This document shows positions 1,260 through 32,518 of a DNA stretch of 43,938 nt, piece by piece. Location of the stretch: assembly GCA_964552285.1 (NCBI GenBank), contig CAZKGT010000001.1:1-43938 (forward strand). The letters are read 5' to 3'. This DNA is from an uncultured Pseudobdellovibrionaceae bacterium (GTDB taxonomy: Bacteria > Pseudomonadota > Alphaproteobacteria > Micavibrionales > Micavibrionaceae). The translations under genes were made by a program, and so were the position numbers. Each line of letters opens with the position of its first letter. Position 1 is the stretch's first letter. The notes below the pieces were generated by a model. The model did not search any database. It had not been told where the DNA came from and saw only the letters and a list, made by a program, of their open reading frames with translations.

Positions 1260-4200
1260 CTATACGATCGTCGACATGTTGCTGGAGTTAAACAGAGCCA
1301 TGTCTATATAGAGATCCTTGCCACCTATTTCAAAGTGCTCAAATCCGCTGCCACTGCCCAAATGCTCTGCGCCCAGATAATCTTCGAAATCAGCTTTAGA
1401 GACAGAACCGGTTGGTGTGCCCGTGGCTAGCTGAACGTGATTATCCGCCAAGTTTCCAACCACATCAATTTTCAGGCTGCCGTCATCTGAGGATTCCAGA
1501 AGACTGAAGATATCATTGATGCCAAGAACAAGCGTATGCATGTTGCCGCCGGAACCCAGCATTTCAATGACTTCGATACGGCTGACATCTTCTGCGCCGA
1601 CATTCCTGAAATCAAGCGTCGAGGCAGCGCCGCTCATGAATTTCAGGGTATCCATATGGCCGCCGCCGTCGATGCTCTTGAACTGATCATCGGATACCAC
1701 GAAATCATCGTCTCCCGCACCGCCGAGGAACGTTATGCCCATATGACCGCCGTCATCCAAAACATTGTTCACGTCACCGCCAACCAGAATCTGGTTGTCC
1801 GCACCCGCCGTTATATTGTCCATTGCCGGATCCTGATCCGGAATTTCGTCGACAGGATTGTTGAACAGATGATCTATTTCCTCATGATGCAGGGACTTGT
1901 GGTAAATCCGCAGATCATCCATGGCGCCGTCGAAATAGTTCATCGATGCACTGAAGTGGGCTCCAATATTGAATGAAGCTCCTGCCGGAGAATGGCTGAT
2001 CCCGTTGCTGTTTTGAACAGCGACCTCATCTCCATTAATGAACAGCATGTATTCACCCATCGCCATGTCGTAAGAAACAGCAACATGTTCCCAGGCTCCC
2101 GTTGCAATCGTCTCTGCTGAGGTAACGGTAAGCATGGAGCTGTTGTCATCGATAACCAGTTCCAGCTGGCCCACGGCGTTAATGCCAAAGAAGAAATCCG
2201 TTTCCGAGCCGTGTTGCTCACTAATGATGGCCTGCCGCACCCCTGTGCTGTTCAGATTGATCCATGTTGAAACCGTAAAGTCCGTTGCGATGCCTGTTGA
2301 CTGAGCGGTGGAAATGTAATCATCCGAGCCATCGAACTGAAGGGCGCCGCCAACGATCTGGTCAGTAGCCGCGGCAACCTCACTTGCACCTCCGTTCCAC
2401 GTACCATCCGGATTTCCACCGACGGCATTCGTTACCGTGGTTCCCGAGGTTTCATCCATCTTCCACATGGCGAACATGCCGTCATAAACATAATCGTTCG
2501 CACCTCCCGGATGGCCGTAAACAACCATGGAAGCACCGGCATTGCTCGTTCCGCCGTCGTCAAGATCCGGCAGGCCGATGACAATATCGCCAAAACCGTC
2601 GCCATTGAGATCGCCAGCGCTGGAAACCTCGAAATCGAAATTTGACGGTGACGTATCATCGCCAAACGGGATGTCATACGTCATCTTGAAGGCTATGGAA
2701 GGATCATCCAGATCATTCGGACCCCCGGCCCGGTAATCACCGCCCGGTCCGCCGCCATAAACGACATAGATATCGACTTCGTGCTCTGAACCGCCAGCCG
2801 TGTTGCGTGTCACGATAATCGCATCATCAATACCGTCACCGTTAAAGTCACCAGCAGCTCCGGCAGAAACCAGCTCAAAACCGGCTGCAGCCGTAACCGT
2901 CATTATGTTCGTCGTATCATTGACGGCTGTTGCGCCACCCGCACCGACAACGTTTAAATCATCGCCGGAAAGAATACGCAGAGCACCCGCGCCTGCCGTT
3001 TCTGCAATAGCGATATCACTGACGCCGTCGCCATTGATGTCACCCATATTGAAGACGGGAATTTCCGGCATCGCACCGTCAACATCGATCATATCGATCG
3101 TGATTGCGTCCGCGGCAAGAGAAATATCCGCCTGCCCGGCAATGACTGAAGACAGGATCAGGTGAACTTCCCCGACATCTGTGCCCCCTCCGTTTGTCGG
3201 CACGGCAATCATGAAATCGCCATGACCGTCACCGTCAATATCACCGGCGCCTGCCACAGTGTGGCCGAGCAAATCATTCATGTTTAAGCCATCAATTTGA
3301 AGGCCGTCCAGGAATGTATCAACCGCCTGCACATTGCCGGCACCGTTAACCGTCACAGGCACAAGATCTGCGCCTGTACCGGCAAGAGCCATATCCACAG
3401 CGCCAAACAAGGATGGCTCGACCGTATCGCTTATGAATTCCGGATTGCTCGGATTCGTGAAGATATCGAATGTCAGGATATGCCCGTCAATCCCGTCATC
3501 GCCCTTCACCACCAGCATATTGCCGCGCACGTCAATGGCCGTAAGATTGATATCAAGCTCCGGCACCATCCCCACGGAAACGCTCCCTAATGATCCACCT
3601 CCATTGCTATAAATACGAATGCTCCGGAAGCCGCCATCCTCCACCAGGACATACATATTCCCGCCGGGCTCAACGGCAATGTCAACCGCACCCTTTAAAA
3701 AACTGGTGGCAGCAACAACGTTTTGGGGCAGGTTCGTCAGTGTTGCCGTATTGATCCGCATGATGCCGCCCTGGGCACCATCGTCGTAAAGCACAAAGAT
3801 ATCGCCAAACGCTCCTTCGAAAATTTGTAATGCGCCGGTAATCGCGGTCGTATCCGTCTGGTTGATTGTCCCACCGTCGGCAATCGTCGTATCAATGTTG
3901 TTTGCAACGACAACCTTATTATTGGCCGTCAGGATATAAGCTGTTGTTCCTAAGCTATCGACAACGATATCCTTGCCGCCGCCATTGCTGGCCACCGCTG
4001 TAATTGATAGCGCTTCAGCCAGTACCGGGGCCCCGCCACCGTAATCCACCCGCGCCAGAATACCCGGGCCGGTAATCGTGTAGACAAACTGGTTCGTGCT
4101 GTCGATATCGGCCGCAACAACGCCTTCCAAATCCGGATCATCAAGCTGGCCGTCGGACGAGAGGAACCCTGCCCCTGTGTTGAAGCGCATCACCTCGAGT

Positions 4201-7200
4201 TGCCCGTTGGGACCGACAGCATCGGAAATGACGAAGAACCTGTCCCCGACACCGTTTGCGGATTCTATGGCGACCGCATTGCCGATCGTACCCATATCAT
4301 CGATAATGCCTGTCCCCAGACCATCGATATGCTGGGAAAGCGGCATATTGTCACCACCGAAAAGCAGATAGGCAGAACCGTTATTACTGAAACCTTCATC
4401 TCTTCCCGGCGCACCGACCAGAACATCGGCAAAACCGTCTCCGTTGACGTCACCGACCCCGGCCACGGACATCCCGGTCATATCGCTGGCAAACATGCCG
4501 TTCAGATCCATAATCAGGGTTCCGTCTTCGGCAATGATCTTCGCATTCCCGGCACTTGAATTCTCGGACGGCGTGCCGACGATGTAATCCGTCATTCCGT
4601 CACCGTCGAAATCGCCGACGGCGGAAACGCTCTCGGCATTCGAGGTATCACCGTCCGGAGGAAGAATGAAAGAGCCGCTCAGGCTTGATAGAACGGTATC
4701 TGCCGGCAACGGCTCCTTTCCGCCGGCGTCATCCGTGTTCAGATCAAATAATGGGACACCGCTGCCGTTACCCATGCCGAAGGCGAGGTTGTCATAGCCG
4801 TCACCATCCAGATCACCGAGCGCCGCAACAAAATCACCAAAGCCCGAGTTGGCGATTGTCCCGTCATCAACAATGATAAATCCTTCATCATGCTCCAGAC
4901 CGGCAGCAATAACGTTCAGGTCCAGCACGCCGGGGTTTCCAAGGCCGTACACATCAAACAGGCCGTTAAACGCGCCGCCGAAATCGACATTTACGGTTCG
5001 CGTTCCATCGGAGAACGTAATCGTGTTACCTGCCGCAACCGTTCCGGAAACATAGTCATACCCGGCATCCATAAAATCGAGCACCAGATCGTCGGCATCA
5101 TCGATCTGGATCGTTAACGTCTGGCCGCTATTGCTGTCGAGCATGAAGTTGCGGATGCTGACATCTATAACATCGTTTTGCGCGTTCGAGCCAAAATCGT
5201 AGATTTCCACGCCTTCGATCCTGTCCTCGGTGCCTTCTGGTTCGATGATAAAATCGCCGGCTCCCGCATTGGTGAATTTCAGCGTGTCGTTTCCGCCGCT
5301 GCCCAGCAAATGGAACTCCACAGAGTCACCGTCTTCCACATCGAATAATGCGGCAGATATTTCAAAAACATCGTCACCGGCCGAACCGACAAATTTCTCA
5401 AATCCGGAAATTGTTTGCGTTGCGCCAGAATTTACGATAACCGAGCCGCCGACAATATCGACATTCACATTGTTCCCGGAACCGTAGGCCGAATAATCAA
5501 GCGTATCAAATCCGCCCGCGGCATTCAGCGTGTAACCGCTGTTCACACTGGAAGACAGCATATTGAATGTGTCGTTGCCGGTGCCGGCATCGAATGTTTC
5601 GACCTGCGCGACAGACTCGTTCTGGTCTGAGCCGGCCTGATCCACCAGCGTCGTCCCTGCGAAGGAAGACATGTCCAGATTCATATCATAGGTAACGCCG
5701 GTTGCATCATATGTGTCCAGACCGGCACCACCTGTAATGTTATCCTGACCGTCATCGTTGTTAATCGTAAACGTATCGTTCCCGGCACCCGCCGTAATCA
5801 TGTCAGCGCCGCCGCCACCGTCATAAACGTTGTCCCCGTCATCGCCGGAGAGAACATCAGCTCCCGCTCCGCCCGTGATGTTGTCAACATCGCCGATGTC
5901 CGCAAGAACCTCTATATCGATCGTGTCAAATCCTGACGAGAAAGCATCGCCAATAGTTGTGTCTTCAATGCCATACTGGCTTCCCACGGACTGGTCCCAT
6001 GCAACGTAATCAAAGCTTGCCGTTCCACTGAAGTCGGCATTGGGAACAAAACGCACGAGATCGGTGCCAAGCAGCAGCAGGGCATTTGTACTGGACACGC
6101 CGGAAATCGCCTGCCATGTTCCGTCAAAATATTCCCACTGACCGTTGGAATCATCGACATCTGTAATGGCAATACCGACGCCGGGTGTCTCCGCATCACC
6201 ATAGTTTGCGCCCATAAGCGTATCGAGATCTTCCCCTGGCGATGAAAAGTCATCCTCGTTTATATTCGTCATGGACGGGAATGTGTTTGCCAAAGTCGGC
6301 GCATCGTTTATCGCCAAGACATCAACTGTTGCCGTATCTGAATTATCTGAAAAGGCTGTGCCACCTGTCGTTGTATCCCAGGTACTTCCGGAACCCCCGA
6401 CTGTCTGATCCCATGCCTTAAAATTGAAGGTCGCGCTACCGTCAAAATCGGCATTGGGAACAAAGCGTATAAGATCATTCGAATCCAGAAGCAGGGCCGT
6501 AGCCGGGGCAGGCGTGCCGATCGCCGTCCAGCCACTACCGTTATCATACTCCCAATAACCATTCCCTGCATCCACGCCTATCACTGCAATGCCATTGACC
6601 GCGCTGTCAACGTCAGTGATCGAGCCACTCACAATATCGAACACTGTATCACCGGCATTTCCTGTATCATCCTCATTCACGTTCGTCATGTTTGGCGACA
6701 GTGGCGTCAGGTCCGGCTTGTCGTTTACTCCTGCAACAGTAACCGTACTAACAGCGACATTACTGTCGTTCACGCCATCATTAACTGTGATTTCGATGGT
6801 ACGGTCTGTTGTATCCGGGTTTTGTGACGTATTGTTGTAAAGAACTTTCTGCAACAAGGACTCATACTGAGCCAGCGTTGCTGTTCCTGAAATTGTAATT
6901 GAATGCGTTCCCGGCGTCAGAGCGAGTGACCATGCTCCTATATTACTCAATCCTCCTGCCGTCATTGACAGGCTCTCCGCGCCGCCATCCTGTGGGTTTG
7001 TAATCTGTATCGTTACGGACTGTATGTTGCCATTGTCATCGTCTAATATTTCGACATCAGCATCAGTAATGGCAATATAACCACCATCTTCGGTGAAAGA
7101 TGCGTTATAGCCGGTTCCGGCCGTATTGCTGTCATTCTGGTCGAGATCAAGCGTCGGCGTCTCATCATTTACCTCATTGATGCCAATATTGAACGTATAT

Positions 7201-9800
7201 GATGATCCGACATTGGTGCCATCTGTCAGGGTAAAATCAAAGTCATCTGAAAAATTCTCGGAATCGTCGTGATGGTATGTCACGTTGCCGTCGATAATAT
7301 CCTGAACACTAAAGGTGTCCGTAGGGGCAAGCGTAACACCGCTCAACTTGAGAACGCCATGCCCTGGCAGCGTATCAATCTGGAACAATGTACCAGAATC
7401 GCCGGTATCGACATCTGACGCCTCGAGCATTGAGAGCGTGAGCGGAATAAAACCGCCCTCATCCAGACTGTCAGAGAGCTGGATTCCGTCATTTGCAACC
7501 AGTCCCGGCGCATTGTCGTTCACATCGCCGATATTGACCGTAATTGTCGCCGTATCGCTGCCGCCATTCCCATCATCAACCTGAATAACAAGGTCGTATT
7601 GCTGGGTGCCCTCATAATCGAGATTTGTATCATCACCGATTGTAATTTCACCTGAAGTTAACCCTATGTCGAAAATACTGTCTGTGTTTCCGCTAAGAAT
7701 ACTATAGCTCAGAGTGTCGCCCGGCAGATCCTGATCTGTTGCCGCAATTGTCCCGACTGAAAACCCGTTTGAAAAGTCCTCATCCACAGTCGTTGCCATG
7801 ATCTGATCGTTCAGCACCGGCGCTTCGTTGACATCGTTGATATCAATTGTAATCGTCGCCGTATCGCTGTAATTTCCGGGGCCGTTGTCAGTAACTTTCA
7901 CCGTCAGAACGTATTGCCCGGTCGCCTCGTGATCGAGCGTGCCGTTGACGGTAATTTCGCCGGTTGCGCTGTCTATATCAAAGACACTGCCCGTGTTGCC
8001 CGCCGTGATGGCATAGGTCAGGACCTGCCCGGCATCCGGGTCGCTGGCCGTTACCGTTCCGACGGACGCACTGGCCGCCGAATTTTCATCTATATTGAAT
8101 GTGCCGTCATTTGCCGTGGGCGCATCGTTCAGGTTTGATATTCCGACCAGGAAAAATTCCGTTACCGAGCGTCCGTCCGGCAATGTCGCCCGGACATCAA
8201 CATCCAGAACATCGCCACTGGTTAAAGCGCCCGATATCAGCTTTACAAAAGCCTGATCTCCCGGACCGTCAACGATTCCCAGCATTCCGCCATTATCATT
8301 CAGCAATGTATAGGAAACATCGGGAAAATCGCCGGTCGTCTCAATAACCGCAATCACGTCGCCAACGGCCAGATTGTCATCGATCAACTGGCGGCTGATC
8401 GTAAGCTCAAGTGGCAGAAGCGGCGGTGGCGGGGGTTCCGCATTACTGCCGGTACTATCCGAATCCTGGCTATTTGACGTTATGCTGGTATCGCCAGTGC
8501 CTCCGGTACTGCCCGTATCCGTCGTTCCTGCCGGATCGCCAGCGGCACCCGACGTGCTGCCCGTATTGGTTGAACCCGAGCTTCCGGTCGTTGTACTGCC
8601 AAATACATTTTCTCCTGACGGAGTTGGAGACGGAGGCGGTGGTGGAGGCAAAGCTCCTTCTTCGCCGCCCTCTGCCGTTTGTGCCGGTTCGGTACCCGGC
8701 TCCGTCTCCGCCTGTTGTTCGGGTGCGGTCTCTTCAGAGCCGGCTTCTTCGGTACCCTCTTCACCAGCTTCATCCGTAGCGTTTTCCTCCGCTGCGCCCT
8801 CTGTCCGGCCTTCTTCAGCGGCGCCTTCCCGCGTCCCTTCCTCTCCGGTAGCGCCTTCGCCCTCGTTACCGCCTTCCTGTACTTCATTGCCCAGAGCGTT
8901 AAAGAAGGTCGGCGTAACGCCGCCGATAGCGGCAAACTTTGCGCCCATGCTTTGGGCGTCCATCTGCCCCATATGCGTAATTTCCCCGGTCTGCGGGTTG
9001 AACATACCGGTCTCGAACTGCAGGGCCAACGTCATTTCCTCGCCTGTGTGCGAGCGCAGGACAATCGCACCGTCCACCACGGTAATCTCACCGGTATCAA
9101 CATTACCGGCAATGGTCGTGCCGCGAATACCGATGGAACCGACCGGCGTGTCGATCTCGACATCATCGGGATCGTCACGGCCAATCAGGCCGCTCGTGAA
9201 AACAAAAACACCGCGCAGCATGGAGAAATTCGAAGACCCGCTCTCCGTCGCGGGATCAAAGACATATTCGTCGATGGCAAGGCGGGCATTATCGGAGACG
9301 GCAAAGCTGGTTTCGTCGATAAAGATAATATTGACCGCGCCGTCGCCTTCTGTTTCAACGATATCACCCTGAAAAATGGGCATGCCGATGCTGATGGTCT
9401 CAACTGTGCCGTCCGTGCGTGTGACGGTTGCACTTCCGGATGCTTCCTCAATTACACCAACCGGGCTGACATCGTCCATCGTCCCGGCCTGTGCGAATTC
9501 GGGGGCCGAGCGGGCAAAGGAATTCACAAGCTCGGGTGTTAAAACCTGACCGTCTTCGGCCATAATCTGGGGCTGGGGAATAGCGGAAAAATAACCGTCA
9601 ATGATGAGAACCGTGCCGTCCGGCGCCTCAAGCACCAGATCCTGTCCGTCTCTTGTGAGCTCAAGATCGCGCAGATCGCCGAGCGTATCCGGCAAATCTA
9701 CCGTCTCACCTTGATGTGCCGAAATTACCTTTTGCGCACCATCTTTAACGATCTCAGAATCGCCCTTATGGCCGTCTACACCCTTGCCTGATCGAATCAT
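1260..9800 (-). CDS. Giant (2,846 aa) secreted adhesin with a FecR-like N-terminal module, cadherin repeats, RTX nonapeptides, FG-GAP repeats and a LamG domain; probable type I secretion substrate
   Basis: A single uninterrupted ORF. Motifs read by eye: 'DLVLEAPDGTVLIIDGYF'; cadherin repeat ends 'DINDVNEAP' and 'GDVNDNAP'; 'GGAGADVLSGDDGDNVYDGGGGAD'; multiple 'GDxDGDGxxD' FG-GAP loops; a LamG-like 'FDGSDDYI...FDGAMDDLRIYHKSL'; and a Gly/Asp-rich C-terminal block with no cleaved signal peptide. Confidence 0.9.
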   Translation of the reverse strand: MIRSGKGVDGHKGDSEIVKDGAQKVISAHQGETVDLPDTLGDLRDLELTRDGQDLVLEAPDGTVLIIDGYFSAIPQPQIMAEDGQVLTPELVNSFARSAPEFAQAGTMDDVSPVGVIEEASGSATVTRTDGTVETISIGMPIFQGDIVETEGDGAVNIIFIDETSFAVSDNARLAIDEYVFDPATESGSSNFSMLRGVFVFTSGLIGRDDPDDVEIDTPVGSIGIRGTTIAGNVDTGEITVVDGAIVLRSHTGEEMTLALQFETGMFNPQTGEITHMGQMDAQSMGAKFAAIGGVTPTFFNALGNEVQEGGNEGEGATGEEGTREGAAEEGRTEGAAEENATDEAGEEGTEEAGSEETAPEQQAETEPGTEPAQTAEGGEEGALPPPPPPSPTPSGENVFGSTTTGSSGSTNTGSTSGAAGDPAGTTDTGSTGGTGDTSITSNSQDSDSTGSNAEPPPPPLLPLELTISRQLIDDNLAVGDVIAVIETTGDFPDVSYTLLNDNGGMLGIVDGPGDQAFVKLISGALTSGDVLDVDVRATLPDGRSVTEFFLVGISNLNDAPTANDGTFNIDENSAASASVGTVTASDPDAGQVLTYAITAGNTGSVFDIDSATGEITVNGTLDHEATGQYVLTVKVTDNGPGNYSDTATITIDINDVNEAPVLNDQIMATTVDEDFSNGFSVGTIAATDQDLPGDTLSYSILSGNTDSIFDIGLTSGEITIGDDTNLDYEGTQQYDLVIQVDDGNGGSDTATITVNIGDVNDNAPGLVANDGIQLSDSLDEGGFIPLTLSMLEASDVDTGDSGTLFQIDTLPGHGVLKLSGVTLAPTDTFSVQDIIDGNVTYHHDDSENFSDDFDFTLTDGTNVGSSYTFNIGINEVNDETPTLDLDQNDSNTAGTGYNASFTEDGGYIAITDADVEILDDDNGNIQSVTIQITNPQDGGAESLSMTAGGLSNIGAWSLALTPGTHSITISGTATLAQYESLLQKVLYNNTSQNPDTTDRTIEITVNDGVNDSNVAVSTVTVAGVNDKPDLTPLSPNMTNVNEDDTGNAGDTVFDIVSGSITDVDSAVNGIAVIGVDAGNGYWEYDNGSGWTAIGTPAPATALLLDSNDLIRFVPNADFDGSATFNFKAWDQTVGGSGSTWDTTTGGTAFSDNSDTATVDVLAINDAPTLANTFPSMTNINEDDFSSPGEDLDTLMGANYGDAETPGVGIAITDVDDSNGQWEYFDGTWQAISGVSSTNALLLLGTDLVRFVPNADFSGTASFDYVAWDQSVGSQYGIEDTTIGDAFSSGFDTIDIEVLADIGDVDNITGGAGADVLSGDDGDNVYDGGGGADMITAGAGNDTFTINNDDGQDNITGGAGLDTYDATGVTYDMNLDMSSFAGTTLVDQAGSDQNESVAQVETFDAGTGNDTFNMLSSSVNSGYTLNAAGGFDTLDYSAYGSGNNVNVDIVGGSVIVNSGATQTISGFEKFVGSAGDDVFEISAALFDVEDGDSVEFHLLGSGGNDTLKFTNAGAGDFIIEPEGTEDRIEGVEIYDFGSNAQNDVIDVSIRNFMLDSNSGQTLTIQIDDADDLVLDFMDAGYDYVSGTVAAGNTITFSDGTRTVNVDFGGAFNGLFDVYGLGNPGVLDLNVIAAGLEHDEGFIIVDDGTIANSGFGDFVAALGDLDGDGYDNLAFGMGNGSGVPLFDLNTDDAGGKEPLPADTVLSSLSGSFILPPDGDTSNAESVSAVGDFDGDGMTDYIVGTPSENSSAGNAKIIAEDGTLIMDLNGMFASDMTGMSVAGVGDVNGDGFADVLVGAPGRDEGFSNNGSAYLLFGGDNMPLSQHIDGLGTGIIDDMGTIGNAVAIESANGVGDRFFVISDAVGPNGQLEVMRFNTGAGFLSSDGQLDDPDLEGVVAADIDSTNQFVYTITGPGILARVDYGGGAPVLAEALSITAVASNGGGKDIVVDSLGTTAYILTANNKVVVANNIDTTIADGGTINQTDTTAITGALQIFEGAFGDIFVLYDDGAQGGIMRINTATLTNLPQNVVAATSFLKGAVDIAVEPGGNMYVLVEDGGFRSIRIYSNGGGSLGSVSVGMVPELDINLTAIDVRGNMLVVKGDDGIDGHILTFDIFTNPSNPEFISDTVEPSLFGAVDMALAGTGADLVPVTVNGAGNVQAVDTFLDGLQIDGLNMNDLLGHTVAGAGDIDGDGHGDFMIAVPTNGGGTDVGEVHLILSSVIAGQADISLAADAITIDMIDVDGAMPEIPVFNMGDINGDGVSDIAIAETAGAGALRILSGDDLNVVGAGGATAVNDTTNIMTVTAAAGFELVSAGAAGDFNGDGIDDAIIVTRNTAGGSEHEVDIYVVYGGGPGGDYRAGGPNDLDDPSIAFKMTYDIPFGDDTSPSNFDFEVSSAGDLNGDGFGDIVIGLPDLDDGGTSNAGASMVVYGHPGGANDYVYDGMFAMWKMDETSGTTVTNAVGGNPDGTWNGGASEVAAATDQIVGGALQFDGSDDYISTAQSTGIATDFTVSTWINLNSTGVRQAIISEQHGSETDFFFGINAVGQLELVIDDNSSMLTVTSAETIATGAWEHVAVSYDMAMGEYMLFINGDEVAVQNSNGISHSPAGASFNIGAHFSASMNYFDGAMDDLRIYHKSLHHEEIDHLFNNPVDEIPDQDPAMDNITAGADNQILVGGDVNNVLDDGGHMGITFLGGAGDDDFVVSDDQFKSIDGGGHMDTLKFMSGAASTLDFRNVGAEDVSRIEVIEMLGSGGNMHTLVLGINDIFSLLESSDDGSLKIDVVGNLADNHVQLATGTPTGSVSKADFEDYLGAEHLGSGSGFEHFEIGGKDLYIDMALFNSSNMSTIV

Positions 9801-10020: not shown

Positions 10021-11067
10021 TTGAAACGTCAGGATTTCAGCTTCGATTTGCCGGAAGATCTTATCGCAGATCAACCCTGCGCGCGGCGCAGCGATAGCCG
10101 TCTGCTGTGCCTGAACGGAGCCAGCGGTCAAATTGTTCATAAAAGATTTATTGATCTGCCCGATCTCCTGCAACCCGGCGACCTGCTGGTCTTTAACAAC
10201 ACGAAAGTTATTCCGGCACGGCTTTACGGGGCCAAACCAACGGGCGGCAAGGCGGAAATCCTGGCCGAACGCATCCTGTCCCCGCAAACCATACTGGCCC
10301 ATGTCAAGGCCAGCAAAGCACCGGGGGAGGGCTCGTCCATCCTTCTGCCAGATGAAACAGAAATACTGGTGGAGGGCCGGCAGGATAATTTCTTTATTCT
10401 TTCGCTTCCTGAGGGCAGGAACTGGCCGGAACTGCTGGAAAAGCACGGGCAGATGCCCCTGCCTCACTACATGCAGCGCGAGGAAAAGGCGATCGACCGC
10501 GAGCGTTACCAGACCGTTTACGCAGAAAAACCGGGCGCCGTGGCCGCACCGACGGCAGGCCTGCATTTCGACGAAGCCCTGCTGGAAACGCTTAAGGCCA
10601 AAGGCATTGAAACCGCTTTCGTCACCCTGCATGTCGGAGCGGGAACGTTCCAGCCGGTTCGCACGGACGATATCCGCGAGCATAAAATGCACGCCGAATA
10701 TCTTGAGGTAGACGAAAATACCTGCGCAAAAGTCATGGAAACGCGCCGCGGGGGAGGACGCATAATCGCTGTTGGCACGACAAGTGTCCGGTGTCTTGAG
10801 ACAGCCTGGAAAGATGATAAATTGCACCCCTTTATGGGTGATACAAATATCTTTATCTATCCCGGCTACCGTTTTCAGTGTGTCGATGCGCTTGTCACGA
10901 ACTTCCACCTGCCGGAATCCACCCTGCTGATGCTGGTCTGCGCCTTTGCCGGTTTTGAGAATATCATGACGGCCTATAAGGCCGCCGTTACAGAAAATTA
11001 TCGCTTTTTCAGCTACGGGGATGCTATGTTCATAACGCAAAATCCGGATGCGGACGGTCCGGATTAG
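10021..11067 (+). CDS. queA: S-adenosylmethionine:tRNA ribosyltransferase-isomerase
   Basis: The N-terminus '(M)[18 protein letters not shown]' parallels E. coli QueA 'MRVTDFSFELPESLIAHYP'. Other matches are '[12 protein letters not shown]' and 'VGTTSVR'. The start codon is TTG at 10021. Confidence 0.92.
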
Positions 11068-11086: not shown

Positions 11087-11755
11087 ATGACCGACAGACA
11101 ACAACTCGTTCCACCCGAAGGCGAAAAAAAGGTACTGCTGCACAGCTGCTGTGCGCCGTGTTCGGGCGATGTAATCGAGAGCATGGTGGAATCCGGGCTG
11201 GATGTGACCGTATTTTTCTACAATCCGAATATCCATCCGAAAAAGGAATATGAACTGCGCAAAAGCGAGAATATCCGCTATGCGGAAAAGTTCGGCATTC
11301 CCTTCGTTGACGCCGATTACGATGTGCAGAACTGGTTCTCCCGCGCCAAAGGGATGGAATTCGAGCCAGAACGCGGCATTCGCTGCACGATGTGTTTCGA
11401 TATGCGGTTCGAGCGCACCGCCCTGCACGCCCACGAGAACGGATTTAAGGTCTTTACCAGTTCGCTCGGCATTTCCCGCTGGAAGAACATGGACCAGATT
11501 AACGACTGCGGAACGCGGGCCGCCGGGCATTATCCGGGGGTAACCTACTGGACCTACAACTGGCGCAAAGGGGGCGGGGCAAACCGGATGTACGAGATTG
11601 CCAAGGAAGAAAATTTCTACGCCCAGCAATATTGCGGCTGCATATACTCCTTGCGCGATTCCAACGAATGGCGGGTCAAACAGGGCCGCGAGGAAATCGA
11701 GATCGGCGAGACGTTCTATGAGGACAAACTGGCCCCTTTCAAACGAAATTCTTAA
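11087..11755 (+). CDS. queH: Epoxyqueuosine reductase QueH (DUF208 family)
   Basis: '[15 protein letters not shown]...[13 protein letters not shown]...CTMCFDMRF...YCGCIYS' is the Cys pattern of DUF208/QueH. I prefer the ATG at 11087 over the track start at 11048, which overlaps the end of queA. Confidence 0.85.
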
Positions 11756-12421: not shown

Positions 12422-13418
12422 AATGCAGCGCCCGGAAATCGTCTGCCCGGCGGGCACCCCGGCGGCCTTGCGTACGGCTGTGAATGCCGGGGCGGACGCC
12501 GTCTATTGCGGCTTTCAGGGGCCCACCAACGCCCGTAATTTTCCCGGCCTGAACTTCACACCGCAGGAGCTGGAGCAGGCCATCCCGTATGCCCATGAGC
12601 GCGGGGCAAAGGTACTGGTAGCGCTGAACTCATTTCCACCGGCGGGGCAGATGCAACGCTGGAAAGACGATGCAGACTGTGCTGTCAGGGTGGGAGTGGA
12701 TGCCGTGATTGTGGCCGATATCGGCATGGCCGATTATATGGCCCGCACGCATCCACAGCACAGGCTGCATCTGTCAGTTCAGGCCGGCGCTTCATCGCCG
12801 GAAGCGGTGAAGTTTTATTGCAGGGAATTCGGCGTGAAACGCGTTGTTCTGCCGCGTATCATGACCGTGGCGGAGATTAAGGACCTCAACGAACAGATCC
12901 CCTGCGAGGTGGAGGCGTTTATCTTCGGCAATATCGGCATGATGGCCGAGGGACGGTGCAGTCTTTCCTCTTACGCGACAGGCCACTCGACCAATATGGA
13001 CGGCGTCTGTTCCCCGGCCAGCCATGTACGCTATGAGCATGACGGCGAAGGCAATCTCGCCACGCGGCTCGGCGCCTTTGTCACCGATTGTTATTCCTGC
13101 GGGGAAAAGGCCGGTTACCCGACGATCTGCAAGGGCCGATACAACGCCGCCGATAAAACCGGTTATTACGCTTTTGAAGAGCCTGTCAGCCTTAACCTCA
13201 CGGCGCTTTTGCCGGAAATGATGAAAGCGGGCGTCTGCGCGCTCAAGATCGAGGGACGCCAGCGCAGCTGCGCCTATGTGAAGGCTGTTGTTTCCGCTTT
13301 CCGCAAGGCGGTGGACGACCTGATGGAAGGACGAGAGATCGCCATGGCCGACCTGCTGGCGCTTACCGAAGGACAGCGCGAAACGCAGGGTGTGTTCGGC
13401 AGCAAGACCTGGAGATAA
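12408..13418 (+). CDS. ubiU: U32-family ubiquinone hydroxylase subunit UbiU
   Basis: Collinear with E. coli YhbU: 'CPAG...ADAVY', 'TNARNFPGLNFT', 'GRCSLSSY', 'AGYPTICKGRY', 'LKIEGRQRS'. Confidence 0.9.
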   Translation: MNDNEMQRPEIVCPAGTPAALRTAVNAGADAVYCGFQGPTNARNFPGLNFTPQELEQAIPYAHERGAKVLVALNSFPPAGQMQRWKDDADCAVRVGVDAVIVADIGMADYMARTHPQHRLHLSVQAGASSPEAVKFYCREFGVKRVVLPRIMTVAEIKDLNEQIPCEVEAFIFGNIGMMAEGRCSLSSYATGHSTNMDGVCSPASHVRYEHDGEGNLATRLGAFVTDCYSCGEKAGYPTICKGRYNAADKTGYYAFEEPVSLNLTALLPEMMKAGVCALKIEGRQRSCAYVKAVVSAFRKAVDDLMEGREIAMADLLALTEGQRETQGVFGSKTWR

Positions 13419-24443: not shown

Positions 24444-24907
24444 CCGGTACACTCATCATCGGCATAGGAAACCGCTTTCGCGGTGACGATGCGCTGGGGT
24501 GTATTCTGGCCGACCAGTTGAAAGAGCACGGCTTCAATGCCATGGAGCATAGTGGAGAGCCTGCCTCGCTGATGGATGCCTGGCAGGGGTATGATCCGGT
24601 GATCCTGATTGATTGCGTGTTTTCGGGTGCCGCGCCCGGGACCATCCACCATTTCGATCTCCAGCAGGACAAGCTGCCCGCCGATTTTGCCAAGCCGACC
24701 ACGCATGCGGTGGGGATTGCCGAAGCGGTTGAATTCGCCCGCGTGCTTGGTAAACTGCCCCCGCATATTGAATTTTACGGTGTCGAAGGGGCGGCTTATG
24801 AATCCGGGGAAAGCCTCACTCCAGCGGTGAAAAAGGCGGCGGAAGAGTTGAAAGAAAAAATATTAACCACAGAGATCACGGAGAACACAGAGAGATCACA
24901 GAGTTAA
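24440..24907 (+). CDS. Hydrogenase maturation endopeptidase (HoxW/HybD family)
   Basis: 'LIIGIGNRFRGDDALG' signature. TTG start at 24440, overlapping the large-subunit stop (TTGA). The last 13 codons ('TTEITENTERSQS') and the stop codon lie inside repeat A2. Confidence 0.85.
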   Translation: MTGTLIIGIGNRFRGDDALGCILADQLKEHGFNAMEHSGEPASLMDAWQGYDPVILIDCVFSGAAPGTIHHFDLQQDKLPADFAKPTTHAVGIAEAVEFARVLGKLPPHIEFYGVEGAAYESGESLTPAVKKAAEELKEKILTTEITENTERSQS

Positions 24908-24944
24908 ATAGAGCTTTTCTCTGTGATCTCTGTGCACTCTGTGG
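24865..24944. repeat. Palindromic element, family A copy 2
   Basis: The left arm is 'aaccacagagatcacggagaacacagagagatcacagag' and the right arm is 'ctctgtgatctctgtgcactctgtgg'. A perfect 13-bp core stem pairs 'agagatcacagag' with 'ctctgtgatctct'. Confidence 0.8.
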
Positions 24945-24964
24945 CGAATAAGAAAGGAAAGCCA

Positions 24965-25234
24965 ATGCATGAATTCAGCCTGATGCGCGATTTGCTGCGC
25001 AAGATCAAAGTCATTTCCGACGATAACGGCGGCGCGAAAGTGGTCGGCGTTTCGGTCTGGCTGGGAGCTCTCTCGCATATCACGCCGGAGCATTTCGCCG
25101 AGCATTTCGAGGAGGAAACCAAGGGCACGATCGCCGAAGGGGCCAAGCTTGACGTCATGCAGGATAACGACGAAAAACACGAGAACGCGCAGGATATCCT
25201 GCTCAAAGAAGTTGAAATCGAAAACGCCGCGTAA
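24965..25234 (+). CDS. hypA: HypA-like nickel metallochaperone lacking the zinc-finger domain
   Basis: 'MHEFSL' is the N-terminal Ni-binding motif. 'GAKVVGVSVWLGALSHITPEHFAEHFEE...GTIAEGAKLDV' is collinear with E. coli HypA. The 89-aa product contains no cysteine at all, so both CxxC pairs are absent. Confidence 0.7.
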   Translation: MHEFSLMRDLLRKIKVISDDNGGAKVVGVSVWLGALSHITPEHFAEHFEEETKGTIAEGAKLDVMQDNDEKHENAQDILLKEVEIENAA

Positions 25235-25284: not shown

Positions 25285-25361
25285 TTGTCATCCCGACTGA
25301 AATGGAGGGATCTTCCCCGTTATCAGCTTGGTAAGATCCCTCGCTTTGCTCGGGATGACAA
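25285..25361. repeat. Palindromic element, family B copy 1 (GTCATCCCG...CGGGATGAC type)
   Basis: 'ttgtcatcccgac...gagggatctt' pairs with 'aagatccctc...tcgggatgacaa'. It ends 2 nt before the hypF ATG. Confidence 0.85.
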
Positions 25362-25363
25362 TT

Positions 25364-27700
25364 ATGTTCAGTGGTAAAAAAACAAGACAAAGAATTATCG
25401 TCACCGGCGCTGTGCAGGGCGTGGGATTTCGGCCTTTCGTTTACAGGATCGCCTGCGAACAAAATCTGGCCGGATGGGTGCAAAACACACCGGAGGGTGT
25501 GATTATTGAAGTTGAAGGGGAAGAGGCCGCGCTCACCCGTTTTGACCAAACCCTGAAAAATGACCTGCCGCCAGTGGCTTCAATCCGATCCCTGAATGTT
25601 GAAGTCATCCCGCCCGAACAGGCGACTGAATTTGAAATTATCCATAGCGATACGGCGCAAAACCCGTCAGCAACCGTGCTGGCCGACCTAGCGTTGTGCG
25701 AGGACTGCCTGCGGGAGATGAACGATCCGACGGACCGGCGCTACCGCTATCCTTTCATCACCTGCACCAATTGCGGGCCGCGCTTTACGATCATGGCCGG
25801 CCTGCCCTATGACCGGCCGCAGACGAGCATGGCAGCCTTCCCTTTATGTGATAAATGCACAGAAGAGTATGAAAATCCCCTCGACCGGCGCTTCCACGCC
25901 CAGCCGCTGGCCTGCCCGGATTGCGGGCCGCAACTGGCATTGCGGGATGCGGACGGGGCCGTTGTTGCAGAAAAAGAGAGCGCACTTCAGAGATCCGCCG
26001 CAGCCATCCGTGAAGGGAAAATACTGGCGATGAAAGGGCTTGGCGGCTTTCATCTCGTGTGCGATGCGAGAAACGAGGATGCCGTTCGGCAGCTTAGGGA
26101 GCGTAAATACCGCCCGGCCAAGCCGTTTGCCGTGATGGTCCCCTCACTGGAAGCCGCGCAGGCGATCTGTGAGGTATCGGAAACGGAGGCCGGATTGCTG
26201 GCATCCGCGCAGGCCCCGATTGTCTTGCTACAAAGAAAGCCCTCTCCCCTGCGGGGAGAGGGTTGGGTGAGGGGGGGAAGAAGTCCAAAGGTCGATATTG
26301 ATTGCCCTTCGGAATTATCCCCCCCCTCACCCAACCCTCTCCCCGCAGGGGAGAGGGCTTTATCCGCTCTGGCTGATGACGTCGCCCCCGGCAATCCCAA
26401 TCTCGGCGTGATGCTGCCCTATACACCGCTGCATCATTTGCTGATGCAGGAGCTGCAATGCCCCGTCGTCGCCACCAGCGGCAACCGGGCGAGCGAGCCG
26501 ATCTGCACGGATGAGAATGAAGCGCTGGAACGGCTGTCCGGCATTGCCGACCTGTTCCTAATCCATAACCGCCCCATCGTCCACCGGGCAGACGATTCCA
26601 TCGTCCGGGTTATGGGCGGGCGGCCCGTGATGTTGCGCAGGGGGCGGGGCTATGCGCCGATGCCGTTCTTTATAGAAGACAGTACAGATAAAAATATTCT
26701 TGCCGCCGGCGGCCATCTGAAAAACACCGTGGCCCTTGCCGTAGGCGGCCAGATCGTCGCCAGCCCGCATATCGGTGATCTCGATACGCCGGAAGCATGC
26801 CGCGGCCATGAGCAGGCGATTGACACGCTCTGTGATCTTTACCGTACACAGCCCGATCTTGTAGTCCATGACCTGCACCCGGATTACATGTCAACGAAAA
26901 TGGCGCAGGAGCGCTTTGCGCAATGCGAACCGGTCCAGCATCATTACGCGCATGCGCTGGCCTGCATGGCCGATAACAGGCTGGAAGGCGGAGCGCTGGC
27001 CGTGGTCTGGGACGGTACAGGGTACGGTACGGACGGCACGATCTGGGGCGGGGAATTTCTGACAATTACAGAAGATGGGTTTGAGCGTACTGCTCACCTC
27101 CTGCCCTTCCCGTTACCCGGCGGGGATGCGGCAGCGAAAGAGCCACAGCGGACAGCGCTCGGAATGCTCTTCGCGATGGGTCGCAGCGATGCATGGGAAG
27201 GAGAGAACAAAGACCTGCTGCTGCAAACACTGAACAAAAACATAAACTGCCCCCTGACCTCCAGCGCAGGGCGCTTGTTCGACGGCGCGGCGGCACTGCT
27301 GGGCCTTTGCCAGAAGAACACATTTGAGGGGCAAGCTGCTATGGCCCTTGAATTTTCTGCCACCACTGAAACGGAAGACATCTATCCTTACGAGATTTCC
27401 GGTAACGTCATCGACTGGCGGCCGATGATTGCCGCTTTAATGGAAGACAACAAAGCGCTGGCTCCTACCAAATTCCACAACACGCTGGCTGCAATTATCA
27501 CCGACATTGCAAAAAGGTCAGGCCAGAAAAAAACCCTGCTCACCGGCGGCTGCTTCCAGAATAAAACGCTGCTGGAAAAAACCATTACACGGCTCTATGA
27601 TGCGGGTCTGGAACCATACTGGCACCGCGACATCCCGCCCAACGACGGCGGCCTTGCCGTAGGCCAGATCATTGCTGCCACGAAAAAGCGTGCAAAATGA
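25364..27700 (+). CDS. hypF: Carbamoyltransferase HypF
   Basis: Acylphosphatase motif 'VQGVGFRPFVYRIA'. Two zinc-finger pairs, 'CEDCLREMNDPTDRRYRYPFITCTNCGPRF' and 'CDKCTEEYENPLDRRFHAQPLACPDCGP'. YrdC-like 'GLGGFHL' and Kae1-like C-terminal 'NDGGLAVGQ'. The start at 25364 avoids repeat B1. Confidence 0.92.
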   Translation: MFSGKKTRQRIIVTGAVQGVGFRPFVYRIACEQNLAGWVQNTPEGVIIEVEGEEAALTRFDQTLKNDLPPVASIRSLNVEVIPPEQATEFEIIHSDTAQNPSATVLADLALCEDCLREMNDPTDRRYRYPFITCTNCGPRFTIMAGLPYDRPQTSMAAFPLCDKCTEEYENPLDRRFHAQPLACPDCGPQLALRDADGAVVAEKESALQRSAAAIREGKILAMKGLGGFHLVCDARNEDAVRQLRERKYRPAKPFAVMVPSLEAAQAICEVSETEAGLLASAQAPIVLLQRKPSPLRGEGWVRGGRSPKVDIDCPSELSPPSPNPLPAGERALSALADDVAPGNPNLGVMLPYTPLHHLLMQELQCPVVATSGNRASEPICTDENEALERLSGIADLFLIHNRPIVHRADDSIVRVMGGRPVMLRRGRGYAPMPFFIEDSTDKNILAAGGHLKNTVALAVGGQIVASPHIGDLDTPEACRGHEQAIDTLCDLYRTQPDLVVHDLHPDYMSTKMAQERFAQCEPVQHHYAHALACMADNRLEGGALAVVWDGTGYGTDGTIWGGEFLTITEDGFERTAHLLPFPLPGGDAAAKEPQRTALGMLFAMGRSDAWEGENKDLLLQTLNKNINCPLTSSAGRLFDGAAALLGLCQKNTFEGQAAMALEFSATTETEDIYPYEISGNVIDWRPMIAALMEDNKALAPTKFHNTLAAIITDIAKRSGQKKTLLTGGCFQNKTLLEKTITRLYDAGLEPYWHRDIPPNDGGLAVGQIIAATKKRAK
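26236..26361. repeat. Palindromic element, family C, inserted in frame inside hypF
   Basis: 26236-26277 ('aaagccctctcccctgcggggagagggttgggtgaggggggg') is the perfect reverse complement of 26320-26361. The total is 126 bp, or 42 codons. Each arm also contains the sub-palindrome 'ctctcccc-tgcg-gggagag'. Confidence 0.9.
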
Positions 27701-28416
27701 ACAAGGTAAGCGCTATCATCTTCGATCTGGACGGGGTCCTGATAAAGGGATCAAACGAGAGCTATTATGATGCCTACGACAAGGCCCTGAAATCCGTGGG
27801 GCTGGACATCCCGCGTGAAACGCAGATTGAAGGCTACCTCGCGCACTGGAGCAAACCCCATCACGTACTGCTCGGCCTTTTTATCGACGATCCCGATACT
27901 CTGCGCGAGGCCTGCGAAGTGTACGAACGGGAAGTCCTGTCCGAACAGTTCTTTGACAAAGTGCAGGCCGTTCCCGGTATAAAAGAAGCGCTTTTGTCCC
28001 TGCACGCGGCCGGGATTAAGATGGGGATCGCCACCGGCATGCACCACGATCAGGTGCCCTTCGCGCTCAAGAAAATCGGCGTCAGCGAAGATATTTTCGG
28101 CGCCGTCATGAGCGGTTATCAGGTTCAAGATCCGGCCCACCAGAAACCCGACCGCTATATGGTCGATGTCATTCTGGCGGATCTTGAAAGACCCCATGGC
28201 GAAACGCTCTTCGTCGGGGACAGCAAAACCGATATCCAGATGGGTCATAATGCCGGAAACCGCACCGTGGCCGTCCTGACAGGTAATATGAACCGGCAGG
28301 ACGCACAGGCGCAAAATGCCGACCATATTCTTGAAACGGCGTCAGAACTGACGGGCCTTTTAGGTCTCGCGCCACCCCACCTTTCCAGACCTATGGAGAA
28401 TGTACCATGTGCCTAG
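27697..28416 (+). CDS. HAD-superfamily (subfamily IA) phosphatase
   Basis: Motif I 'IIFDLDGVL', motif II 'IATG', motif III 'QKPD' and motif IV 'VGDSKTD'. It has an ATGA overlap with the hypF stop and a 10-nt overlap with the hypC start. Confidence 0.85.
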   Translation: MNKVSAIIFDLDGVLIKGSNESYYDAYDKALKSVGLDIPRETQIEGYLAHWSKPHHVLLGLFIDDPDTLREACEVYEREVLSEQFFDKVQAVPGIKEALLSLHAAGIKMGIATGMHHDQVPFALKKIGVSEDIFGAVMSGYQVQDPAHQKPDRYMVDVILADLERPHGETLFVGDSKTDIQMGHNAGNRTVAVLTGNMNRQDAQAQNADHILETASELTGLLGLAPPHLSRPMENVPCA

Positions 28417-28649
28417 CCGTACCCGGACAAATCGTCAGCATTGAAGGTGAAGGGATGGAACGCCTTGCCCGCGTCCGGTTCTGCCAGATCGTGAAGGAAG
28501 CCAACGTGTCCTTCGTGCCAGAAGCGGGCATAGGCGATTACATCCTCGTCCATGCGGGCGTGGCGATTTCGCGCGTTAACGAAGATGAAGCGCAAAAGAC
28601 ATTCGCGTATCTGGATGAAATCGGCGAAGTGCAGGAGCAGCTTGGATGA
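28407..28649 (+). CDS. hypC: Hydrogenase assembly chaperone HypC
   Basis: 'MCLAVPGQIVSI' with the essential Cys2. The protein is 80 aa. Confidence 0.9.
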   Translation: MCLAVPGQIVSIEGEGMERLARVRFCQIVKEANVSFVPEAGIGDYILVHAGVAISRVNEDEAQKTFAYLDEIGEVQEQLG

Positions 28650-29227
28650 GCGCTGCCGGACAGAACGATATTATTCTGGATTTTCCGGAGGAGCGCCTTT
28701 TGCCCTCCCTGATTGAGGCGCTCAGGGAAGGGTTCTTCGAAGTCCCTCCCGGCGCGGTGACGGAAGAGGAAGTCTCCAAAATTGAGGCCGATCCGGAAGC
28801 CTATCTTGCAAGCCTGAATGACAATACACCCGGAGAAATAGAACTCCTCGACGGAACAAAGGTCCCAAAAGTGCCGCAGGAGTGTTTATGGCTCTCGCAA
28901 GGCGACGAGTTCATCGGCACGTTCAATATCCGGACGGAACTCTCCCCCAATCTTTTAGAAAACGGAGGCAATCTGGGCTATACGATCCGCCCGTCTTACC
29001 GGGACCGAGGCATGGCCACGCTGGGCACAAAGCTGAGCAAGGATTACGCCCGGGAAAAACACGGCATGAGCCGCTTGCTGGTGACCTGTCTGGTCGAAAA
29101 TGCTGCTTCGGAGCGCGTCATTATCAAGAATGGCGGCATCTACGAGGACACGGTTGAAAAACCCGTTGGCGGCTTCGGCCCGACAAAACGGTTCTGGATT
29201 GATTTAACCGCAGGCGAGGAAAAATGA
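28646..29227 (+). CDS. GNAT-family N-acetyltransferase (COG3981-like)
   Basis: '[23 protein letters not shown]...[21 protein letters not shown]' resembles the acetyl-CoA-binding core of GNATs. It has ATGA overlaps with both hypC and hypD. Confidence 0.75.
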
Positions 29228-32370: not shown

Positions 32371-32518
32371 AACACAGAGATCACGGAGTAAAATATCCCA
32401 CCGCTGTCATCCCGAGCGAAGCCGAGGGACCTTACCCGCTATCCGCATCTAAGATCCCTCGGCTTCGCCCGGGATGACAGGAATAGGCAATCTCTGTGAA
32501 ACTCTGTGTTCTCTGTGG
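32371..32518. repeat. Composite palindrome: a family B element (32404-32480) nested between the two arms of a family A element
   Basis: The A arms are 'aacacagagatcacggag' at 32371-32388 and 'tctctgtgaaactctgtgttctctgtgg' at 32491-32518. The B arms are 'ctgtcatcccgagcgaagccgagggacctta' and 'taagatccctcggcttcgcccgggatgacag', which are near-perfect complements. Confidence 0.85.

Follow-up and report, generated by a model that had tools for sequence, protein, structure and literature searches.

An in-frame palindromic element in hypF

The DNA analysed here (the window) is a stretch of 43,938 nucleotides from an uncultured Pseudobdellovibrionaceae bacterium (Alphaproteobacteria; Micavibrionales; Micavibrionaceae), namely the forward strand of contig CAZKGT010000001.1 in assembly GCA_964552285.1. 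It carries an intact operon encoding Fe-S, cNMP-binding and NAD-binding subunits, the hydrogenase small and large subunits, HycI, HypA, HypF, HypC and HypD. Within hypF lies a 126-bp element in which two inverted 42-bp arms flank a 42-bp centre. Judged by its sequence, this element appears to be an inverted doublet of the BoxC/PIT/TM (TMECO) intrastrand-triplex motif. Its parts are as follows.

25364..27700, + strand: hypF (carbamoyltransferase HypF, 778 amino acids from the ATG at 25364); the element corresponds to residues ~292-333
26236..26277, + strand: left arm, composed of AAAG, CCCTCTCCC (26240-26248), CTGCG, GGGAGAGGG (26254-26262), TT, GGGTGAGGG (26265-26273) and GGGG; a putative triplex motif of the BoxC/PIT/TM type whose G-rich strand is the + strand, recognized by the exact inverted repeat, the hairpin and the base triads
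26278..26319, + strand: central spacer of 42 bp, AAGAAGTCCAAAGGTCGATATTGATTGCCCTTCGGAATTATC, only partly self-complementary, encoding ...RSPKVDIDCPSELS...
26320..26361, + strand: right arm, CCCC-CCCTCACCC-AA-CCCTCTCCC-CGCAG-GGGAGAGGG-CTTT, the exact reverse complement of the left arm; the same putative motif, here with the + strand C-rich

Direct comparison showed that 26236-26277 is the reverse complement of 26320-26361 at 42 of 42 positions, which bears out the arms and centre described in an earlier reading made from the letters alone (the sequence-only reading). That reading also called the whole unit a perfect 126-bp palindrome, a description that holds for the arms but not for the unit: self-complementarity is broken at 16 of the 126 positions, every one inside the central 42 bp. 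A repeat finder gives the unit arms of 61 nt with 90% complementarity, separated by a 4-nt centre. Sub-patterns of the arm were not matched in any of 100 shuffles, and the palindrome is thus far beyond chance. Folding with ViennaRNA, which does not model triplexes, gave -114.6 kcal/mol for the 126 nt as RNA (shuffles, -54 +/- 4.3; z = -14.2) and -64.9 kcal/mol as DNA (z = -13.9). Searches of the window with up to three mismatches or with a relaxed motif returned no further copies, and an Rfam scan of the whole window reported a single tRNA and nothing at the element.

The HypF open reading frame (ORF; 25328/25364..27700, + strand) translates through the entire unit as KPSPLRGEGWVRGGRSPKVDIDCPSELSPPSPNPLPAGERAL. 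The 42-codon read-through proposed by the sequence-only reading is thereby upheld, with a small correction to its flanks: the sequence after the insert is SALADDVAPGNP. Codon phase begins at 26237, one base inside the palindrome, and the predicted translation includes the peptides GEGWVR and VDIDCPSELSPPSPNPLPAGER. As had also been pointed out, an ORF on the minus strand (26094..26426) yields a near-identical peptide. Of the remaining forward frames, one runs into a TGA in GGGTGAGGG and another into a stop within the central spacer, so hypF uses the sole viable forward frame of the element. We considered an intein, an intron and translational bypass and rejected all three, as the frame is open, the unit is only 42 codons long and nothing in the sequence points to splicing.

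The arms resemble a described triplex motif

BoxC, PIT and TM motifs have been known since the 1990s and are described as strictly intergenic repeats of unknown function and origin; the literature on them reportedly also includes Bachellier et al. 1999 and Hoyne & Maher 2000 and 2002. An explicit definition is that of Holder et al. 2015 (PMC4666352), in which the pattern CCCTCNCCC N3-6 GGGNGAGGG N3 GGGNGAGGG is termed TMECO, formerly BoxC and PIT. According to that study, E. coli K-12 has 23 copies, always intergenic, 10 of which form five inverted pairs, and the pattern was counted 3610 times across 262 proteobacterial genomes. The motif forms a stable triplex in vitro as single-stranded DNA, whereas in vivo the triplex was not detected. 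TMECO motifs displayed neither promoter nor terminator activity in E. coli, were tied to local sequence instability and were never found near a transposase (PMC4666352).

Each arm of the hypF element matches this motif, an identity that the sequence-only reading had missed. The hairpin that the pattern calls for (a C-rich 9-nt CCCTCNCCC stem joined through 3-6 nt to its complement GGGNGAGGG) is present as CCCTCTCCC-CTGCG-GGGAGAGGG at 26240-26262 in the left arm and is mirrored at 26335-26357 in the right arm, and the second G-rich GGGNGAGGG block is represented by GGGTGAGGG at 26265-26273. When GGGTGAGGG is laid antiparallel to GGGAGAGGG, nine of nine positions form allowed purine-motif triads (G*G, A*A, T*A). 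The strict TMECO regular expression found no match in the window, but both arms matched once a second loop of 2-3 nt was allowed. On these grounds the window arm would be a variant of the strict published pattern. Each 42-nt arm could fold into a 9-10 bp hairpin with an adjacent purine tract available as the third strand of a triplex, and the two arms together could form a 42-bp hairpin or cruciform.

HypF appears intact around the insert

The host protein has all five HypF Pfam domains, and its best homologues by BLASTP are 58-60% identical. Alignment of 120 HypF homologues supported the sequence-only reading, which had put the insertion into a short loop of variable length within the YrdC-like part. 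From PIVLL to VAPGNP, this loop measures 11 residues in 89 of the 120 and 10 residues in another 10, versus 50 in the window HypF; loops of at least 18 residues occur in 15, the window's included. All invariant columns of a 70-sequence alignment are kept. By this comparison, the element has added 42 codons to a loop that is otherwise short, without disturbing the reading frame. A protein-database search with the 50-amino-acid insert peptide returned no candidate sharing enough words.

Structure prediction, which the sequence-only reading had proposed, rendered the insert as disordered coil in an otherwise confident fold. The AlphaFold2 model of HypF has a mean pLDDT (predicted local distance difference test score) of 92 and a pTM (predicted template-modelling score) of 0.91. 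The pLDDT drops below 50 in one segment only, residues 300-331, which the model shows as coil between strands 286-291 and 346-350. Superposed on full-length HypF (3VTH_A), the model gave a TM-score of 0.93 and a root-mean-square deviation of 2.5 A, and sequence alignments to HypF in the PDB leave out precisely the insert. The loop is thus predicted to be disordered, and in the model HypF looks intact.

The same HypF loop is occupied repeatedly

We examined the DNA of five other HypFs with long loops (L001, L002, L003, L180 and L181; L numbers denote sequence stretches). L001 derives from an alphaproteobacterial metagenome-assembled genome (MAG) that shares the operon order of the window and encodes a HypF 60-63% identical to the window's. 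Its loop holds one unit of the triplex motif, in the orientation and frame of the window right arm. The loops of the other four hold one or two units in other frames. These four fall in a clade in which the nearest members with a name are Bipolaricaulota MAGs, and within that clade HypF orthologues 84-88% identical occur with or without a triplex-motif insert in the same loop; comparison of filled and empty loops in that clade revealed no duplication at the junction. The L003 protein (JGI metagenome 3300071268, 823 amino acids) contains three G/C-rich hairpin-pair inserts, one in the window's loop, one further downstream and one at the C-terminus (10892-10944, 11275-11324 and 12426-12450).

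In a neighbour-joining tree the window HypF clusters with five proteins, among which only that of L001 (P0005) has an insert, and P0005 is not specifically sister to the window HypF. The tree fits either independent gain of the two inserts or an early gain followed by losses, and either may be the case. We attribute the repeated occupation of this loop mainly to its permissiveness, with site preference as a second possibility.

Related doublets occur across genomes and inside other housekeeping genes

Genome and metagenome scans recovered the related copies that the sequence-only reading would lead one to expect. Scanning representative genomes with the same arm cores yielded 30 doublets in 29 stretches, and several genomes carry at least two. 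Every doublet-bearing stretch with a class-level name is alphaproteobacterial, the remainder being MAGs labelled 'Proteobacteria bacterium'; hosts include Sphingomonas, Caulobacter, Phenylobacterium, Roseomonas/Falsiroseomonas and Acetobacteraceae. Within this analysis, an alphaproteobacterial source of the window was supported by these hosts and by the synteny with L001; an FtsH-like protein, with ~50% identity to many Alphaproteobacteria, did not decide the placement. An exact 34-nt arm, CCCTCTCCCCTGCGGGGAGAGGGTTGGGTGAGGG, TGCG loop included, is present in 25 metagenome contigs with unrelated flanks (L153-L177), usually paired with a TT-loop or CCG-loop arm; the CCG-loop pairing resembles the combination of type A and type B in E. 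coli. The general triplex motif was found in at least 120 IMG/VR contigs. The 34-nt arm is uniform across taxa.

Most doublet copies share AAG-CCC and GGG-CTT ends, and these ends consequently belong to the unit rather than to a target duplication. Spacers vary among doublets. A centre like that of the window was seen only in L133, a Caulobacterales MAG, and a metagenome scan for the arm together with the window-specific centre gave 0 matches. At 42 nt, and running through the hairpin loops, the perfect stretch of the window arms is exceptional: in the 30 other doublets its median is 22 nt and it never exceeds 30 nt. Such a length would suit either a young copy made from the common variant of the family or homogenization in place.

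A number of doublets interrupt genes as the hypF element does. We counted a copy as in frame only if Pfam domains flank or enclose the element, which left the following cases.

L135 7187-7267, L144 5799-5871 and L147 7603-7683: valS, one site in three MAGs, with diverged flanks
L163: valS, a second site
L159 and L162: glyS-beta
L175: ileS
L166: uvrD
L136 843-929 and 2004-2083: Lhr-type helicase, two doublets
L165: linker of an E2 acyltransferase

By this measure, between about one fifth and one third of the distinct copies in the sample are in frame. They read the motif in different frames (KPSPLRGEGWVRG or KALSPAGRGLGEG); the absence of stop codons therefore appears to matter rather than the peptide, which argues against selection on the peptide. 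Long ORFs over five further doublets (L137, L138, L140, L142 and L143) and over one exact arm (L176) have no Pfam domain and were not counted as genes. The literature that we searched contained no report of in-frame or translated BoxC/PIT/TM copies. Within that literature, an in-frame coding location in housekeeping genes is unreported so far for this repeat family.

Other features of the window

Several features of the operon and its surroundings lie outside the argument about the element and are listed here.

1260-9800, minus strand: an ORF of 2846 amino acids
23024-23120: a 38-nt inverted repeat (CCACAGATGGACACAAATA... / ...TATTTGTGTTAATCCGGGTTCATCTGTGG) between the hydrogenase small- and large-subunit genes, which looks like a third kind of small repeat
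24866-24930: short repeats of the CACAGAG/ATCACAGAG type over the 3' end of the hycI-like protease gene, encoding the C-terminal tail TTEITENTERSQS; the repeat may have extended this ORF
24923-25234: a HypA-like ORF of only 103 amino acids, whose match to the Pfam HypA profile covers positions 1-66 out of 112; its sequence shows no CxxC pair, and the C-terminal zinc-binding part seems missing
25285-25365 and 32404-32480: two intergenic sites occupied by palindromic repeats of a second family (GTCATCCCGA...GAGGGATCTTA / TAAGATCCCTC...TCGGGATGAC); the first ends at the hypF ATG (25364) and yields a spurious N-terminal extension from TTG-25328, 'MVRSLALLGMTI'
27697-28416 and 28646-29227: genes for a HAD-family hydrolase and a GNAT acetyltransferase, interleaved with hypF, hypC and hypD and absent from the syntenic operon of L001

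Origin and persistence of the insert

We think it likely that a BoxC/TM-type inverted doublet was inserted into hypF, by a route not known, and was kept as a disordered loop since it is in frame, free of stops and at a tolerant position. The family would be a small, structured, non-coding G/C-rich repeat widespread in Proteobacteria, of which either one doublet copy or two copies of the common variant would have entered the gene. The element would have survived there because it is exactly 42 codons long, is read in its sole stop-free forward frame and sits in a short, length-variable loop. Once translated, it would add a Pro/Gly/Ser-rich disordered peptide and leave the HypF fold undisturbed. 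Most likely the insert is a tolerated passenger without function for HypF. The element is probably mobile, but the term 'selfish element', used in the sequence-only reading, goes further than the evidence, as no transposase is known for the family and none is present in the window.

Several observations weigh against insertion of a mobile, neutral doublet. For the hypF copy we found no transposase (Pfam scan of 30 window ORFs), no target-site duplication and no empty-site allele, and it is the only doublet copy within the 44-kb window. The E. coli copies have no mobility genes nearby and are always intergenic (PMC4666352). The second loop is TT, 2 nt long, against 3 nt in the published pattern. 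The Pfam-verified in-frame copies all come from MAGs or metagenome contigs and none from isolate genomes, where long ORFs across doublets are without Pfam support. Finally, a 42-bp perfect stem of -115 kcal/mol might be expected to burden an essential mRNA, and the insert may thus not be strictly neutral.

An alternative compatible with most of the evidence is that the doublet arose in place, an ancestral single unit having been turned into a perfect doublet by template switching or snap-back replication, or its arms having been homogenized by hairpin-templated repair. The single unit of L001 lies in the same loop, orientation and frame as the window right arm, the perfect arm is longer than in any of the 30 doublets compared, and the left arm and centre, which would be the added part, together span 84 bp, a length likewise divisible by three. 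However, an arm with the TGCG loop is common enough, as the 25 unrelated contigs attest, that two copies need no local duplication. Moreover, P0005 is not the specific sister of the window HypF, four other members of their clade have no insert, and the partial relative of the centre in L133 suggests a pre-formed subfamily of doublets. We rate an origin in place as rather unlikely. We give still less weight to co-option, whether of the RNA stem, which would tune expression of HypF or of the downstream hypCDE by attracting RNase III or by slowing translation, or of the flexible Pro/Gly-rich protein loop in the interplay of HypF with HypE or HypC. RNase III would be expected to act well on a perfect RNA duplex of 42 bp, and the predicted mRNA hairpin is extremely stable; at least three lineages have triplex-motif inserts in this HypF loop, and the valS insert is kept across three MAGs. 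Yet the inserts in that loop vary in sequence, length (18-50 amino acids), orientation and frame, ~100 of 120 HypFs do without any insert, the insert peptide is predicted to be disordered, and earlier work found PIT motifs without promoter or terminator activity in E. coli. Co-option is thus quite improbable.

Two further explanations concern the reality and the kinship of the element. A palindromic chimera made by the assembler deserves a hearing, as perfect palindromes can be assembly artefacts and this one was seen once, on a metagenome-type contig. Nevertheless, the element is internal to the contig and exactly 42 codons long, both of its flanks are in the HypF frame with conserved motifs, its arms are a known natural motif, and comparable in-frame doublets occur in independent assemblies, for example in valS of three MAGs with diverged flanks. 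An artefact is very improbable. True membership in the Rickettsia palindromic element (RPE) families would explain the behaviour of a palindromic repeat of ~100-150 bp lying in frame in a loop of an enzyme, but the arms match the BoxC/TM motif instead and the relatives come from free-living Alphaproteobacteria (Sphingomonas, Caulobacter, Roseomonas), making such membership scarcely credible.

Insertion and retention of a BoxC/TM doublet, the reading we prefer, would have consequences beyond this locus. A near-consensus inverted pair in frame within an essential maturation enzyme would extend the notion of protein-coding palindromes beyond the RPEs of Rickettsia and tagged REPs (repetitive extragenic palindromes), presuming that the insert is translated, and so would its sister copies in genes for aminoacyl-tRNA synthetases, helicases and dehydrogenases. 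These loci offer natural test cases for the spread of repeats, for hairpin or triplex formation in vivo and for the absorption of 40-residue disordered loops by enzymes. Annotators can also profit: where a predicted protein contains peptides such as PSPLRGEGWVRG and ALSPAGRGLGEG, these are signatures of the BoxC/TM DNA repeat. A bolder proposition, which we hold only tentatively and deem on balance unlikely, is that BoxC/TM doublets are active, horizontally spreading mobile repeats with an undiscovered mobilization mechanism that routinely colonize coding regions of large housekeeping enzymes in Alphaproteobacteria and some other lineages. If so, they would be the free-living counterpart of the RPEs, with HypF, ValRS, IleRS, GlyRS-beta, UvrD, Lhr and E2 as hosts, and the repeated occupation of the HypF loop would reflect site preference or a benefit at the RNA or protein level rather than tolerance alone.

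Comparison with known repeat systems

The closest structural match is the BoxC/PIT/TMECO motif, with which the window arms share the three-block design (CCCTCNCCC, loop, GGGNGAGGG, loop, GGGNGAGGG). The window arm is almost identical to E. coli type A (GGGAGAGGGTTAGGGTGAGGG), and both the E. coli pairs and the window doublet are inverted, with the hairpins outside and the third strands inside. Neither the window element nor its E. coli counterparts have an associated transposase, and both stand outside Rfam and genome annotation; RefSeq E. coli K-12, for instance, shows no annotated feature at the BoxC pair between hrpB and mrcB. The two differ in the second loop (2 nt, TT, versus 3 nt) and in the spacer (42 bp versus ~16 bp), and the window doublet has the same arm twice where an E. 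coli pair joins a type A and a type B arm. The window element is coding and read in frame, unlike the E. coli copies, reported as always intergenic; this is a property of the copies and not part of the structural definition.

In behaviour, the element recalls repeats that are known to lie in frame, namely the RPEs and the GTAG- and CGTC-tagged REPs, which are found in genes including those for tRNA synthetases and repair proteins (REPs: Di Nocera et al. 2013, PMC3733652). The sequence-only reading had drawn the analogy with RPEs, and it is a fair one as regards behaviour, palindromic repeats being tolerated in frame in enzymes; it does not extend to family membership, the arms matching BoxC/PIT/TMECO. 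Like RPEs (Ogata et al. 2000, 2002), this is a palindrome of ~100-150 bp that sits in unrelated enzymes, keeps the reading frame open and adds a peptide where the fold can take it. Judged by the match of its arms to BoxC/TM, it would belong to a different sequence family, and the relatives recovered point to a different host group, free-living Alphaproteobacteria.

REPs and REPIN doublets are inverted dimers that form a larger hairpin, and some lie inside genes, where they add 20-80 residues (PMC3733652). The window element likewise joins two inverted units into one long hairpin (42-bp stem, -114.6 kcal/mol as RNA), and its relatives occupy genes like those that harbour intragenic REPs (valS, ileS, glyS, uvrD and Lhr). 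It carries no GTAG or CGTC tag, however, its arms beginning with AAAGCCC and ending with GGGCTTT, and its third-strand tract has no counterpart in REPs; no RAYT (Y1 transposase) was among the 30 window ORFs scanned with Pfam. Bacterial MITEs (miniature transposable elements with inverted repeats; ERIC, NEMIS/Correia, Nezha and others) are also small and non-coding, have terminal inverted repeats and sometimes give rise to in-frame fusions. The window element has terminal inverted repeats of 42 bp but no known parent insertion sequence, and its flanks, ...CTACAAAG and ATCCGCTC..., have no common direct repeat of the kind that a target-site duplication would leave. We found no evidence placing the element in the RPE or REP families, a negative that for the RPEs involved no comparison with their consensus sequences; by analogy, it would appear to work like both.

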